Of a DNA stretch of 64,000 nt, positions 29,881-38,264 are shown in pieces (positions within the stretch are counted from its first letter, which is position 1; each line of letters starts with the position of its first letter). Source of the DNA: Gammaproteobacteria bacterium (GTDB lineage: Bacteria > Pseudomonadota > Gammaproteobacteria > JACCYU01); NCBI GenBank assembly GCA_050740315.1, contig JBOIDC010000006.1, forward strand, positions 2,596 to 66,595. The letters run 5' to 3'. Position numbers and translations under genes: made by a program. Below the pieces are notes generated by a model. The model did no database searches and was not told the origin of the DNA. It saw nothing but the letters and a program-made list of their open reading frames with translations.

Positions 29881-30897
29881 TCACATCCGAACCGCGCTGG
29901 AGTTCGTCGCCCGCGAGTGCGATCTCTTATCCATCTCCGCTGCTGCTACACATCCGGCAATATCGAAGATATCCGCCACCACGCCATAGCGCGCGATGTT
30001 GAATATCGAGGCTTCGGCGTCGGTGTTCACGGCGATGATGTTGGGCACGTGCTTCATGCCGGCCATGTGCTGCACCGAGCCCGAGATGCCCATCGCCAGA
30101 TAAACCTTGCAGTTGGCGACGGTCTTGCCGGACTGGCCCACCTGGCGCGATTTCGGCAGCCAGCCATTGTCCGCGATAGGACGCGAACAGCCGAGCGTGA
30201 ACCCCATCAGATCCGCCAGTTCCTGAAACTCCTCGACGTTTTCCTCCTCGCCGATGCCGCGCCCGATGGACAGCATGAATTCAGCCTGCGAGATGTCCAC
30301 GTCGCCGCCGGTTTCGGGTTCGATGTAACCGATGTGCGTGGTGCGGGCTGTGGTCTGCGGCGCATCAAAGCGCGTAACCCGCGGGCTGCCCGTTCCTTCC
30401 GCCGCCTCGAACGTGTTGGCGCGCACCGTGAGGATGACCGTCTCCTTGCCCGGGAAATCGACTTCCATGTGCAGCTTCTCGGCATACGCCGCGCGCGTGG
30501 CGACCAATTGATCGTCTTCATAGCGCACGGCGAACACGTCGGTCACGCACCCCAGCCGTCCGCGCGCCGCGACCACCGGCGCGTAGCCCCAGGCATCGAC
30601 GCTGTGCGGGATCAGAACCACGCTTGGTCTGCGTTCGCGGATTACTGCTTCCAGTGCGGCCTCGTAAATATCGGATTGAAAATCTTCCGTCGGCACGGCC
30701 GCCGCAATGACCTCATCGACACCGTCGACGCTCACCTGCCCCACGTACCGATCCGGGTCTTGCGCCATCACCAGCACCGCGACCGGCTGATCTTTCCCCG
30801 CCTTGAGCCGACTGGCCGCGGTGACCGTCTCCAGGCTCGCCGCGCTCAATGTCCCTTGTCGATGTTCCGCTACCACCAGTATTCCGCTCATGGTCAC
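29881..30897 (-). CDS. etfA: electron transfer flavoprotein alpha subunit
   Basis: Full-length EtfA pattern, including the FAD-binding C-terminal region (VYLAMGISGSVQHMAGMKHVPNIIAVNTD). Confidence 0.85.
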   Translation of the reverse strand: MTMSGILVVAEHRQGTLSAASLETVTAASRLKAGKDQPVAVLVMAQDPDRYVGQVSVDGVDEVIAAAVPTEDFQSDIYEAALEAVIRERRPSVVLIPHSVDAWGYAPVVAARGRLGCVTDVFAVRYEDDQLVATRAAYAEKLHMEVDFPGKETVILTVRANTFEAAEGTGSPRVTRFDAPQTTARTTHIGYIEPETGGDVDISQAEFMLSIGRGIGEEENVEEFQELADLMGFTLGCSRPIADNGWLPKSRQVGQSGKTVANCKVYLAMGISGSVQHMAGMKHVPNIIAVNTDAEASIFNIARYGVVADIFDIAGCVAAAEMDKRSHSRATNSSAVRM

Positions 30898-31517
30898 GCG
30901 CCTCGTAATTCTTTGATGATTTCGGCCACACGCGCCGCCTGTTCGGCGGGCGTGCCCTCGATCAGCTCGGCCTGACCTTTCTCAGGCATCAGCATGCGCC
31001 TGACCCTGAACAGCGAACCCCGCTCGCCGACCTCCTCGTCGCTCAAACCGAGACCGCGGGGCGACAACACCTCGATGGGCTTGGCCCTGGCCTGCTTGAT
31101 GCCGCGCAGCGACGCGTAGCGCGGGGTGTTGATGCCGAGCTGAATGGTGAGCACGGCAGGACACTCCACGGCAAGTTCCTCCTCGAGACCGCCTTCCAGT
31201 TCGCGACGCAGCTTCGCCGTGGTATCGCCGGGCTTGCAGTCGAGCTTCGACACCACCGCGACGTGTGGCCAGCCGAGTTCCGCCGCGATGCTGACGCCGG
31301 TCTGCGAGAACGAGTGATCGGCGGCCAGCGTGCCGGCGAACACCAGGTCCGCGCGCTCTTTCTCCACGACCTTGGCGAGCACGCGCGCGGTCGCGGCCGG
31401 ATCGGAACCGGTCAGCGCCGCGTCCCAGACGCGTATGCCCCGCTCGCCGCCTTTGGCCAGACAGCGGCGCAGCCCGTCATCGGCCTCCTCCGGCCCGACG
31501 TGTATGGGTATCCGTCG
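30894..31517 (-). pseudogene. etfB: electron transfer flavoprotein beta subunit, 5'-truncated (lacks about 45 N-terminal residues and a start codon)
   Basis: In-frame EtfB sequence (…IPIHVGPEEADDGLRRCLAKGGERGIRVWD…LPAVLTIQLGINTPRYASLRGI…) ends upstream at TAG 31518-31520. No ATG/GTG start is available before the ARVLAK GTG codon. Confidence 0.6.
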
Positions 31518-32580
31518 CTAACGTTTCGATCGCGGCATCCGGCGCGTCGGGTCGCAGCGCGACGCCGGCGCGCACCCACGGTTGGGAATCCCGCGCGAGC
31601 CGACAAAGCAGCTCCGCCGGGCAGGCGGCGTTGCGCGTCACGCCGCGGCGCACCGCGGGCGCAGCATCGACCACCAGCCGCCGCAGCATCCGCTCCGACA
31701 AATGCGCATTGCGGGCCACCCAGCGCCGCACCCACTCGTCCGGGTCGCTGGCCAGCCGCTCGAAGGTCGCGGGAGCCAGACCCTCACGCCGCGCCTCCAT
31801 GCGCCGCACACGCGCAGACGGATCATCACGCAGATCATCGAGCTGGGCATCCGGCAAGCTCAGATTGCACACGGCCGCGGCGCGCACCTGCGACGCCTCG
31901 TCGCTCAAAAAGCGTGTCAGCGTGTCGGTGGAAACCGGCCAGCTTTCTGCGTATCAGAACCTCCGGACTGCGCGCGGCCTGCGCTTGGATGTCGCTCGGA
32001 CAATGACGGTGCGCCGCCACTTCCGCGCGCAGATACAAGTCGTCCCTTTTCCACAAGCGGCGCAATAACTCGCCGTCCGCGTGCGGGTTTCGCGCGATAC
32101 CCTTGAGCGCCGTGATCGTCGCCTCTCGCGAAAGCGCGCGCAGCATGGTCAGGCCGGTTCGCGGATTCAAACACAGTGCGTGGCGCAGATCCGCGCAGCT
32201 CCGCCATGGAAGAGATTCCAGCAGCGTTTGCGTCGCGTTGCGGTGGCTGGCGACCGCACACAGCGCCGCGTGTGAGCCGTTGAAGTCAACAGCCTTGCGA
32301 GCACCGTCGCCGGCGTCGCCGGATGCCTCGCGACGCGCGCGCGTATCCTTGGATTCGTGTCCGTCGCCAGCGCTTCCAGGAGGGAACGCGGCGTGTAAGC
32401 GGCGCTGGCGAACTGCCGCTTGAGCTTTTGCGTGGCCAGCGCGAGCGACTCCAGTCCGCAGCGCGTGGCACCCCTGGCGAACGGGTGTAATGCGGCGGCG
32501 AGGTACGGATCGCCCCGCGCCAGGGCCAAATCCAGCAGTGAACGCACAGAATCGGCGACGTTGGGCGCGGACACATACAT
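31477..32580 (-). pseudogene. LRV/HEAT-like repeat protein gene split over three frames, fused at its 3' end to etfB sequence
   Basis: Three consecutive minus-strand ORFs (32580-32167, 32170-31835, 31908-31477) with repeats DPDEWVRRWVARNAHLSERMLRRL / NPRIRARVARHPATPATVLARL. The last ORF reads into etfB coding sequence. Confidence 0.45.
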
Positions 32581-37099: not shown

Positions 37100-37148
37100 T
37101 CCTCACCTGCTTTGTACGCCGCGCATCCGCGGCTACCCATAGAATTTT

Positions 37149-38264
37149 TTATTTGCCGCGCTGCCTTAAGCGCAGCGGATCGTAAAACGGCGGCTTCCAC
37201 ACGTGCGCCGCGCAGCTTACGTTCGGCCCGCGCACCTCGACCGCGGTTCCGCGCGCGGTGTACTCGAGTTTGATGTGAACGAGCGCCAGCGATTGCATCA
37301 GAAATCGACTGTACGCCGGCGTGGTCACCACACCGATCTCTTCTCCATCCTTGAACAGTTTGGCGCCTTCTTCGATCGCGCGGTCGCTGTCGCAGATAAT
37401 TCCGGTTTGTCTGATCCTTTCCTTGCCGTGCTTGTCCTGCAGCGCCTGCTTGCCGCGAAACTCGCGCGCGTTCAGATCCACCGCCCAGTCCATGCCGACT
37501 TCCCAAGGTGTGGTGTCGCCTTCGGGCATATCGAACGGATAGAACAGCAGACCGCCCTCGACGCGGCACAAGTCCAGACAGGTGAACGAGCACGGCATGA
37601 TGCCGAACTTCTCGCCTCGACCGAGAATGGTGTCCCACAACGCCACCGCGTCCCTCGACGCGCAGAAGATCTCGTAGCCGCGTTCATGCGAGTAGCCGGC
37701 GCGCGAGATCGACACCGGCTTACCGAAAAGTTTCGTAGTCTGGTGGTGGAAATACGGCAACGTGGCCAGCTCCATCTCAGCAAAGGATTCGAGCAACGCC
37801 AGCGCTTTCGGTCCCTGTACCGACAGCACGTGTACGTCGTCGTCGTTTGCGATCGTGACGTCCTTGCCTTCGGCGATCTCCCGCATCACCGTCTCGGCGT
37901 CGCCGTCGCCGTGGGTGGCGCGGTATTCGTCCGGGCCGTCGCGGTACACCAGAAAATCATCGGTGAGCGCGCCCTGCTCGTTGCACACACAGCCCAGCCG
38001 CGATTGCCCCGGCTCGAGTCTGGACATGTCCGCGGCCTGCATCGCGTTCAGCACGTCAAGCGCATCCGCACCCTTGATTTTGATTACCCGCAGACAACTT
38101 ACGTCCCACAGCCCCACGCGCGCGCGTACGGCCACGTGCTCGTCGTCGGGATCGGTGTGGTATGACCACGGCACGCCCATGTTCCACAGCGGCTGCTCGA
38201 AGCTGGCGCCCAGGGCCTTGTGTCTGCCATAGAGCGCGTTGGGTCTCAGCTCGCTCTCGCTCAT
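37149..38264 (-). CDS. GcvT-like aminomethyltransferase (folate-binding) family protein
   Basis: GcvT fold pattern (VGLWDVSCLRVIKIKG..., C-terminal barrel). First gene of the operon. Confidence 0.7.
   Translation of the reverse strand: MSESELRPNALYGRHKALGASFEQPLWNMGVPWSYHTDPDDEHVAVRARVGLWDVSCLRVIKIKGADALDVLNAMQAADMSRLEPGQSRLGCVCNEQGALTDDFLVYRDGPDEYRATHGDGDAETVMREIAEGKDVTIANDDDVHVLSVQGPKALALLESFAEMELATLPYFHHQTTKLFGKPVSISRAGYSHERGYEIFCASRDAVALWDTILGRGEKFGIMPCSFTCLDLCRVEGGLLFYPFDMPEGDTTPWEVGMDWAVDLNAREFRGKQALQDKHGKERIRQTGIICDSDRAIEEGAKLFKDGEEIGVVTTPAYSRFLMQSLALVHIKLEYTARGTAVEVRGPNVSCAAHVWKPPFYDPLRLRQRGK

Follow-up and report, generated by a model that had tools for sequence, protein, structure and literature searches.

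Among the described systems closest to the locus studied here is the trimethylamine dehydrogenase (TMADH) of Methylophilus methylotrophus W3A1, which works with a dedicated ETF (2TMD, 1DJN, 1O94, and 3CLU). The DgcAB-FixAB (EtfBA) system of Pseudomonas aeruginosa and Vibrio natriegens, a dimethylglycine demethylase, has genes for an OYE/Fe-S flavoprotein, a membrane Fe-S CCG protein, etfB, and etfA in this order, and its DgcB is characterized by Fe-S and CCG domains together with DUF3483 (PMC12093977). DgcB was also described as an EtfD homologue without the cysteines of the D1 cluster (PMC13083937). Mycobacterial EtfD (9OJN) is an ETF:menaquinone oxidoreductase related to HdrDE that serves beta-oxidation, while DmmD of DmmDABC and the GcvT-like domain of the TMAO demethylase Tdm are folate-binding helpers of methylamine demethylation.

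A 64-kb stretch of a metagenome-assembled gammaproteobacterial genome (hereafter the window) carries, on the minus strand from 38264 to 29881, a GcvT-like gene, a TMADH-family flavoprotein gene, a gene for a membrane Fe-S/CCG protein, the remnant of an LRV-repeat gene, a 5'-truncated etfB, and etfA. Five of these gene types had been claimed in an earlier note on this DNA, and all five were recovered with Pfam at the same positions. The architecture it had recognised, in which an ETF-dependent TMADH-family N-demethylase has its own etfBA and is joined by a membrane Fe-S protein of the EtfD/DgcB type, was also borne out and parallels the published dgcAB_fixAB operon (PMC12093977). Judging from sequence comparison, the cluster is very likely a TMA oxidation module, the electron-carrier half of which was recently inactivated, with the pathway probably dead or dying within a wider gene decay in the lineage. 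It is a known system undergoing recent decay. About 110 bp upstream of the gcvT-like start, a promoter-like site (38375-38404, minus strand) matched the consensus at 9 of 12 positions, which is weak evidence, as the number of such sites in the scan was not above the shuffled expectation.

The flavoprotein gene tmd (34898-37099, minus strand) is apparently intact and encodes 733 aa, which match TMADH (PDB 1DJN/2TMD) with 1252.7 bits; residues 5-732 align ungapped to 1-728 of 2TMD/1DJN, with 70.3% identity over 728 residues. Its Pfam domains are Oxidored_FMN, an OYE-like second domain, and Pyr_redox_2. Compared with W3A1 TMADH, the protein keeps each of the 17 residues examined for catalysis, cofactor binding, and TMA specificity (C30, Y60, S74, W105, Y169, H172, Y174, R222, W264, D267, V344, C345, C348, C351, W355, C364, and Y442). 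The five cysteines comprise Cys30 for the 6-S-cysteinyl FMN and the 4Fe-4S ligands C345, C348, C351, and C364, so that the covalent-FMN and cluster motifs read earlier from this protein are both present. The residues Y60/W264/W355, which form the TMA-binding aromatic bowl, the catalytic Y169/H172/D267, and Y60/S74/W105, which distinguish TMADH from dimethylamine dehydrogenase, are all identical to those of W3A1 TMADH, and only three private substitutions fall at otherwise invariant columns. This alignment identifies Tmd as orthologous to the trimethylamine dehydrogenase (EC 1.5.8.2) crystallised from Methylophilus W3A1. As an identity for the flavoprotein, DgcA was tried and rejected, since TMADH is by far the best match at 70% and the TMA-specific residues are kept, with PA5398 outside the direct comparison.

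The earlier note had instead read the cluster as encoding a dimethylglycine demethylase (DgcAB-EtfBA) that would share a glycine-betaine catabolic regulon with soxBDAG, a reading that now appears highly improbable. Such an enzyme would fit the four-part architecture, for the dgcA-dgcB-etfB-etfA homologues occur in the window in the order of the published operon (PMC12093977), with an extra LRV gene before etfB, and it would fit the first CCG-like region of the window's membrane protein, which is without cysteines, as is the D1 cluster of DgcB (PMC13083937). It is nevertheless largely refuted because the flavoprotein is 70% identical to TMADH, with the bowl and the three TMADH determinants kept; this judgement was made through the TMADH match, the PA5398 and PA5399 sequences lying outside the direct comparison. 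A trimethylamine dehydrogenase as best hit was itself part of what the note had named as refuting its reading. Moreover, the ETF is of the TMADH-specific type, and no DUF3483 match was found in the membrane protein. The operon also differs from DgcAB-FixAB in its upstream partner, a GcvT-like gene in place of a dipeptidase and a hypothetical gene. In Methylophaga the module adjoins dimethylamine-monooxygenase-like genes, pointing to methylated-amine rather than betaine catabolism. The intact sox-family operon cited in favour of dimethylglycine is indeed present (16659-21967, plus strand; soxB and soxA above NCBIfam cut-offs), but as an argument for a common regulon it is weak, because it lies 8 kb off, on the other strand, and behind unrelated and broken genes, and soxB-like genes are found near the module in only 4 of 35 loci. 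None of the other flanking genes of the window tested recurs near the cluster in relatives.

The membrane protein gene (32585-34738, minus strand) is intact in the window and encodes 717 aa, in which Pfam detected Fer4, two CCG stretches, and a NarI-like domain (Nitrate_red_gam, 22.9 bits, exactly at the cut-off). Its resemblance to EtfD, which had been suspected before, is real, with 251 bits to M. smegmatis EtfD (PDB 9OJN) over residues 296-348 and 366-696. The two proteins share homologous ferredoxin-like and CCG domains, an N-terminal NarI-like membrane domain, and gene linkage to etfBA, and the gene adjoins etfBA in 29 related loci. Unlike mycobacterial EtfD (1042 aa), the window protein is without a long disordered C-terminal region and would putatively serve an amine dehydrogenase instead of beta-oxidation; its first CCG-like region is without cysteines, as reported for DgcB and FadF (PMC13083937), and the second keeps them. 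With these features of the EtfD/DgcB/FadF (HdrDE-like) family, it is classed by homology as an EtfD/DgcB-family Fe-S/CCG protein, and from its homology to M. smegmatis EtfD we infer a putative ETF:quinone oxidoreductase. A true DgcB was considered and rejected, because DUF3483, reported for DgcB, gave no match even at E<=10 in Pfam (the presence of a model under that name in the release being unconfirmed), though the protein does have Fe-S and CCG domains. In the sister assembly GCA_975322995.1, the stop codon of this gene reads TGT instead of TGA, owing to a SNP at window position 32585.

The GcvT/DmmD-like gene (37149-38264, minus strand) is apparently intact and encodes a tetrahydrofolate-binding aminomethyltransferase-family protein of 371 aa, covering GCV_T (1-255/255) and GCV_T_C (4-80/80). 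The GCV_T protein encoded at the head of the dmmABC-like genes of Methylophaga thalassica shares 49% identity with it, and the GcvT encoded beside tmd in Paraburkholderia and Cupriavidus 45-50%; a further match is to the NCBIfam Tdm model, in its C-terminal part. The role of a folate-binding helper suggested for it earlier is reasonable. Of 35 loci, 17 have a homologue no more than 8 kb from tmd. The dmmABC genes that accompany DmmD are absent from the window, and the protein may serve Tmd, a Dmm enzyme encoded elsewhere, or both.

Between the membrane protein gene, here etfD, and etfB lies a pseudogene of an LRV/HEAT-repeat solenoid protein (31502-32580, minus strand), detected by Pfam LRV and spread over three frames where its orthologues are single ORFs of 453-525 aa. 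The earlier note had listed it only as an abutting gene; it is instead an operon member, since in 28 of the 32 related loci that are informative LRV comes after etfD, and the order tmd-etfD-LRV-etfB-etfA is kept in 25 of 29 complete ones. The same order occurs in the cultured bacteria Paraburkholderia phymatum, Methylophaga thalassica (beside dmmDABC-like genes), and Cupriavidus oxalaticus. The gene is missing from a few otherwise similar loci (L025 and L026) and is therefore not universally required. An orthologue shows tandem repeats with Pfam LRV, LRV_2, and HEAT matches, and the AF2 model of orthologue P0123 (pLDDT 91.9) consists entirely of helical hairpins, with the PP2A A subunit and importin-alpha as best Foldseek matches at low TM-score. 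By its occurrence in these loci, this LRV solenoid protein of ~460-520 aa is a conserved, uncharacterised member of the module. In the window, its reading frame shifts by -1 near 32290 and by +1 near 31935, and its last ~106 codons are deleted, the 3' end being missing relative to the locus of a close relative (L040). Both frameshifts were deduced from orthologues only ~50% identical, and no close relative covering the two sites was found.

The etfB remnant (30894-31500, minus strand) retains about the last 200 of 268 codons and has no usable start codon. Its frame (30894-31517) is open only below a TAG at 31518-31520, with the first canonical start a GTG at 31382. The 5' truncation reported earlier is real: the Pfam ETF profile is matched only from position 38 of 181, the remnant aligns to residues 61-265 of an intact 266-aa orthologue, and tblastn with the intact relative P0002 (269 aa) recovered only residues 65-269 at 92%. 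Its boundary, however, had been placed at 31517, while homology to the intact close relative starts at 31500 and bases 31502-31512 are LRV-derived. Bases 6-204 of L040 correspond to window 31700-31502 at 95.5% and bases 701-2435 to window 31500-29800 at 92.7%, while bases 205-700 are absent from the window. This 496-bp deletion (junction 31500-31502, minus strand), defined against an intact relative 93-95% identical, removes the LRV 3' end and ~67 etfB codons, so that LRV codon ~392 now runs out of frame into etfB codon ~68; the deletion endpoints carry imperfect microhomology, GATACCCATAC and CATCCCCGTGAGC. Intact etfB alleles exist in relatives 92-95% identical (P0002, 269 aa; P0122, 268 aa), and EtfB lengths among the 120 best homologues are 262-269 aa except for the window copy and two on very short contigs. 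Neither a replacement etfB nor a copy of the missing N-terminal piece was found within the 64-kb window. In the NCBI record MGH8501365.1, the remnant is given as an ordinary 205-aa protein with a non-canonical start.

As well, etfA (29881-30891, minus strand; 336 aa as read, Pfam ETF and ETF_alpha in the frame 29881-30897) is damaged by a 36-bp deletion between GCCGG direct repeats (junction ~29954-29958, from DNA and protein alignment with L040), by which the last 8 codons and the stop were lost and a 24-residue read-through tail was left. The earlier statement that every other gene of the operon is intact thus fails for both LRV and etfA. EtfA matches the W3A1 ETF alpha subunit (PDB 3CLU_D/1O94_D) with 379 bits, aligned over 1-312, and the etfB lineage matches the beta subunit (PDB 1O94_C) with 345 bits; on these matches, EtfB and EtfA are orthologues of the dedicated ETF of TMADH. 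Unlike the ETF genes of W3A1, those of the window are remnants rather than a functional member, and complete alpha and beta subunits of this type are not encoded there. With etfB deprived of ~67 N-terminal codons and its start, and etfA of its native C-terminus and stop, the operon-encoded ETF cannot be made. No excess of private substitutions was detected in Tmd, EtfD, the EtfB remnant, or EtfA, and the lesions would accordingly appear recent.

Since the DNA comes from a metagenome-assembled genome, the truncation of etfB and likewise the remaining lesions might be artefacts of assembly, amplification, or consensus in an organism with an intact operon, but this is quite improbable. The deletion junction is 100% identical in Logan contig SRR27067773_29555, a k-mer assembly, and ungapped in a second MAG (NCBI CDICQX010000070.1), which over 15 kb shows 2 SNPs and no gaps. 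A single read set, SRR27067773, may underlie the Logan contigs and both MAG versions; the assemblers are independent and agree, but the DNA samples may not be independent. An unscaffolded de Bruijn contig covers 33596-30949 at 100%, across the junction and the two frameshift sites, without any long repeat that could mislead the assembly graph. Breaks of the Logan contigs near 30891-30949 and at 37077 could reflect strain variation, and a SNP between the assemblies shows a heterogeneous population. Against an artefact also stand the number and variety of separate lesions, four in three neighbouring genes of the operon and similar ones in kdpA, kdpB, a cysK-like gene, and a porin gene, and the two deletions, whose microhomology or direct-repeat endpoints are typical of real ones. 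The damage is genuine and the truncation an ordinary recent pseudogenisation.

Nor is the etfB lesion a lone anomaly, for the window holds several other pseudogenes, whose lesions resemble those of the operon. The kdpA gene matches its own profile at 1-463 of 563, kdpB at 78-593 of 675 with its tail in another frame, and a cysK-like gene only at 90-295 of 299, while a TorF-type porin gene is split in two.

Within the operon itself, tmd, etfD, and gcvT are intact with normal conservation, which could mean that they are still used, and the four fixed lesions are confined to the 3.25 kb of LRV-etfB-etfA within the 8.4 kb. Tmd might thus still function, its electrons going either straight to the EtfD-like protein or to a housekeeping ETF whose genes lie elsewhere, with only a redundant dedicated ETF and LRV shed; a second ETF could lie outside the 64-kb window and serve it. 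We consider this rather unlikely, since the dedicated ETF is kept in every other locus examined, TMADH-ETF docking is specific in the W3A1 system, and the etfD stop codon has already been lost in one allele. Without excess substitutions in the remnants, the intact genes have perhaps simply not been hit yet. A pathway that is probably dead or dying, as part of the wider gene decay in this lineage, is the reading retained here.

Before its inactivation, the module would have converted TMA to dimethylamine and formaldehyde by oxidative demethylation at the 6-S-cysteinyl-FMN of Tmd. Electrons would have reached the quinone pool from the Tmd 4Fe-4S cluster by way of the ETF FAD and then the Fe-S clusters in the EtfD-like protein, while formaldehyde would have been trapped on tetrahydrofolate by the GcvT/DmmD-like protein and the LRV protein might have been a scaffold or adaptor. 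For the EtfD-like, GcvT-like, and LRV proteins, these roles were drawn from homology and gene neighbourhood only. These three proteins distinguish the window operon from the W3A1 pair, and neither their partnership with TMADH nor a respiratory exit via an EtfD-type oxidoreductase is described in the literature searched. It may be speculated, tentatively, that LRV is a required adaptor or assembly factor coupling the TMADH-specific ETF to the EtfD-type oxidoreductase, that ETF and EtfD form the respiratory exit for TMADH electrons, and that decay began with the loss of LRV, after which the dedicated ETF was useless.

For annotation, the cluster should be assigned to TMA oxidation and not to dimethylglycine or glycine-betaine catabolism, with the pathway scored as inactivated in this lineage; the record MGH8501365.1 as it stands would mislead metabolic reconstruction of the MAG. 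The module of five to six genes (gcvT/dmmD-like, tmd, etfD-like, LRV, etfB, and etfA) spans marine Gammaproteobacteria, Methylophaga, Methyloceanibacter, Paraburkholderia, and Cupriavidus. Its LRV partner is the most novel lead, testable genetically in cultured strains, and the conserved module is a testable candidate for linking the classic TMADH-ETF pair to the quinone pool.

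The minus-strand operon carries, according to ORF listing, translation and Pfam matches, a gene for a GcvT-like protein (38264-37149), a gene for a 733-aa flavoprotein with Oxidored_FMN, OYE-second-domain and Pyr_redox_2 matches (37099-34898), a gene for a 717-aa protein (34738-32585) that matches Fer4, has two stretches of the CCG type and begins with a borderline NarI-like region, an LRV-repeat coding sequence spread across three frames (32580-31477), an ETF-beta fragment that is open only below a TAG at 31518-31520, and an ETF-alpha gene (30891-29881). This gene set and the etfB anomaly are as described in an earlier note, which had read the cluster as a dimethylglycine-demethylase-like operon of a glycine-betaine regulon; its architecture and truncation stand, while the substrate, the intactness of the other genes and the regulon argument do not. 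Exact-protein look-ups of the 717-aa ORF, the 733-aa ORF and the protein P0001 returned no match, for which the choice of start codon is the likely reason, and a promoter and terminator scan gave nothing above shuffled background.

In a search of solved structures, residues 5-732 of the flavoprotein align without gaps to residues 1-728 of trimethylamine dehydrogenase (TMADH) from Methylophilus methylotrophus W3A1 (1252.7 bits, 70.3% identity), the histamine dehydrogenases being far weaker matches (525 and 476 bits). All TMADH residues checked are conserved in the flavoprotein, including C30, which binds FMN covalently, C345, C348, C351 and C364, the 4Fe-4S cysteines, Y60, W264 and W355, which form the substrate bowl, V344 and Y442 at the electron exit surface, as well as Y169, H172, D267 and R222. 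Also kept is the Y60/S74/W105 trio, which sets TMADH apart from dimethylamine dehydrogenase. Similarly, EtfA scores 379 bits against W3A1 ETF-alpha, and the intact EtfB of an orthologous locus reaches 345 bits with W3A1 ETF-beta, compared with about 110-136 bits for generic ETFs. On the strength of the TMADH match, the conserved residues and the W3A1-type ETF scores, the cluster is predicted to be a TMADH/ETF system and not a dimethylglycine demethylase. As NCBIfam includes no model for DgcA or DgcB and none specific to Tmd, it gave only generic matches here. A search of plasmids for an annotated dgcA as a comparison gave a 39.6% Ralstonia match, which lies amid trp and pdx genes and not in a dgcAB operon, and a 73% match in a Cupriavidus record, in a stretch that carries no annotation. 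With the Pseudomonas dgcAB-fixAB operon, the window module has only its architecture in common. It would work like the W3A1 TMADH-ETF pair and belongs to the same kind, extended by an EtfD-type membrane protein that may plausibly hand ETF electrons back to the quinone pool.

This membrane protein is homologous to Mycobacterium smegmatis EtfD (PDB 9OJN, 251 bits). In the 9OJN alignment, its first CCG-like region has D/D/S at the EtfD cysteine positions, and its second CCG region retains CxxxxxxxxCCG...CxxC. DgcB and FadF are likewise reported to be without the cluster D1 ligands and probably take ETF electrons at cluster D2 (PMC13083937). The DUF3483 domain, reported for Pseudomonas and Vibrio DgcB (PMC12093977), has no match in the membrane protein even at E<=10, and the protein is filed here as a member of the EtfD/DgcB family, not as a DgcB orthologue.

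A scan with the membrane protein, taking one genome per species, yielded 34 loci, in which tblastn then placed the homologues of the window proteins. Of the 29 loci having both etfD and etfB, 25 show the order tmd - etfD-like - LRV - etfB - etfA, and LRV follows etfD in three more contig-truncated loci, giving 28 of 32 informative loci in total. The same module is present in cultured Paraburkholderia phymatum, Methylophaga thalassica and Cupriavidus oxalaticus X32, as well as in Methylohalomonas lacus and Methyloceanibacter superfactus. In each of the 12 loci checked, one uninterrupted ORF of 453-525 aa encodes LRV, and by gene order the LRV gene is part of the operon. The names of all database matches to the LRV family are "hypothetical", and in an alignment of 28 members the invariant residues belong to the repeat scaffold only, with no cofactor motif. 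An AF2 model (pLDDT 91.9) shows a solenoid built of helices throughout, similar to the PP2A A subunit and importin-alpha, and Foldseek with this model found generic solenoid scaffolds only, with no functional clue; our best guess is that the LRV protein may act as a scaffold or adaptor. In tmd clusters, the etfD-like gene and etfB nearly always flank a gene for an LRV/HEAT solenoid of about 450-520 aa (for instance L042, the M. thalassica locus, 9001-10401; L041, the P. phymatum locus, 9001-10557). The C-terminal part of this solenoid (DPYPLNR...DPEPxVRF) is highly conserved and is exactly the stretch deleted in the window. No paper that places EtfD-like or LRV genes in a cluster with tmd turned up in a literature search of limited reach, and none on the sample accessions.

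The neighbourhood in M. thalassica is a methylated-amine context, where the module is followed by a GCV_T gene, by DmmA-like, DmmB-like and HODM/DmmC-like genes and, beside the module, by a TorF-type porin gene. The window GcvT-like protein is 49% identical to the M. thalassica protein at the DmmD position, and a GcvT-like homologue lies less than 8 kb from tmd in 17 of 35 loci; of the dimethylamine-monooxygenase-like genes, the window has the GcvT/DmmD-like gene only. Such genes (GCV_T/DmmD, DmmA-like, DmmB-like, HODM/DmmC-like) adjoin the tmd-ETF module at L042:12918-17496 and L041:630-4288, and these two neighbourhoods suggest a combined TMA-to-DMA-to-MMA island (TMA, trimethylamine; DMA, dimethylamine). 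As for glycine betaine, the sox-family genes of the window are intact and lie 8 kb from the module on the opposite strand, a soxB-like gene accompanies the module in only 4 of 35 loci, and in relatives no other flanking gene of the window recurs close to it. The supposed glycine-betaine regulon is not borne out by these observations, and the link of the module to glycine betaine is weak. At 13279-15522 on the plus strand, just ahead of the soxBDAG-family genes, lies a gene for a PQQ-dependent dehydrogenase of the methanol/ethanol family whose C-terminal domain is a cytochrome c, in keeping with a lifestyle of C1 or alcohol oxidation.

The match of the etfB fragment to the Pfam ETF profile begins only at position 38 of 181, and in an alignment with an intact 266-aa orthologue the fragment covers residues 61-265. 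The protein database holds intact EtfB relatives 92% identical to the remnant (P0002, 269 aa; P0122, 268 aa, which shares a 90% cluster with the window fragment). L040 (JGI 3300050235), the contig that encodes P0122, runs almost co-linear with the window. Window 31700-31502 corresponds to L040 bases 6-204 (95.5%) and window 31500-29800 to bases 701-2435 (92.7%), and the 496 bp missing from the window hold the final ~106 LRV codons together with the initial ~67 of etfB. Imperfect microhomology marks the breakpoints, as GATACCCATAC at the LRV breakpoint and CATCCCCGTGAGC at the etfB breakpoint; the residues IPIH at the start of the remnant were considered as etfB-derived, and the L040 alignment puts those bases on the LRV side. 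A split or relocated 5' piece of etfB is ruled out for the window, where tblastn found no second etfB and no copy of the missing N-terminus. Contrary to the view that the other operon genes are intact, LRV is frameshifted as well as 3'-deleted, its frame switching near 32290 and again near 31935, and etfA has, in comparison with L040, a 36-bp deletion between two GCCGG repeats, through which it loses its stop and the eight codons before it and gains a read-through tail of 24 residues. When metagenome contigs were scanned with the repaired LRV protein, 489 pattern matches came up and no close relative spanning the frameshift sites, and a 32-mer conserved between the window and L040 had 0 matches in metagenome contigs, where the relevant samples are evidently lacking. 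The decay of the operon is recent, since private substitutions at columns invariant in ~30 orthologues are within the normal range (three in Tmd, none in EtfD, none in the EtfB remnant and one in EtfA).

An assembler artefact is an unlikely source of these lesions. Logan contig SRR27067773_29555, from a k-mer assembly with no scaffolding step, is 100% identical to window 33596-30949 and therefore spans both frameshift sites and the 496-bp junction. The NCBI MAG contig CDICQX010000070.1 differs from window 37018-21982 by two SNPs and no gaps. In a third record, from which the window appears to come, the etfB remnant is annotated as a 205-aa protein, MGH8501365.1. The window record and these two contigs may stem from one read set, and a sample-level artefact therefore keeps a small probability. 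One of the two SNPs changes the etfD stop from TGA to TGT; the stop at 32585 is TGA in the window and the Logan contig and TGT in GCA_975322995.1, where it yields a 965-aa read-through product, a further damaging variant in the same population.

Other genes of the window are broken as well. The kdp operon (45131-48344, minus strand) shows the same style of damage as LRV and etfB by NCBIfam profile matches: kdpA covers only positions 1-463 of 563, kdpB only 78-593 of 675 with its tail (590-674) in another frame after a shift near 45400. Each of the two genes has thus lost the part that faces the other, as LRV and etfB have, and their remnants meet out of frame near 46953-46962; kdpC, kdpD and kdpE look intact. 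A cysK-like PLP enzyme gene (24432-25217, plus strand) is without the first ~90 residues, its match covering profile positions 90-295 of 299, and a TorF/Gcw_chp-family porin gene (25507-26289, minus strand) is split in two (profile 7-99 and 154-244). An intact paralogue of this porin lies at 10617-11414, and a porin gene with a Cupin_6/AraC regulator forms a segmental duplication (11555-12074 versus 26628-27629; 93.7% nucleotide identity over 522 bp), in which the regulator is full length at 26628-27629 and reduced to its C-terminal HTH half at 11573-12070. The window also holds a phage-type integrase (3634-4899, minus strand), toxin-antitoxin genes (HipB-like; MazE with a PIN-domain protein; 42800-44400) and a type I restriction-modification system (HsdM, HsdS; 61008-63718, plus strand), which suggest a variable or island-like region. 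Directly downstream of etfA, a 53-aa fragment of a short-chain dehydrogenase (adh_short_C2; 29658-29819, plus strand) is probably another gene remnant, and its sequence is also found in L040 as far as the aligned window stretch reaches. Given the broken kdpA, kdpB, cysK-like and porin genes, the dehydrogenase fragment and the partial AraC duplicate, the etfB lesion is one instance of general gene loss.
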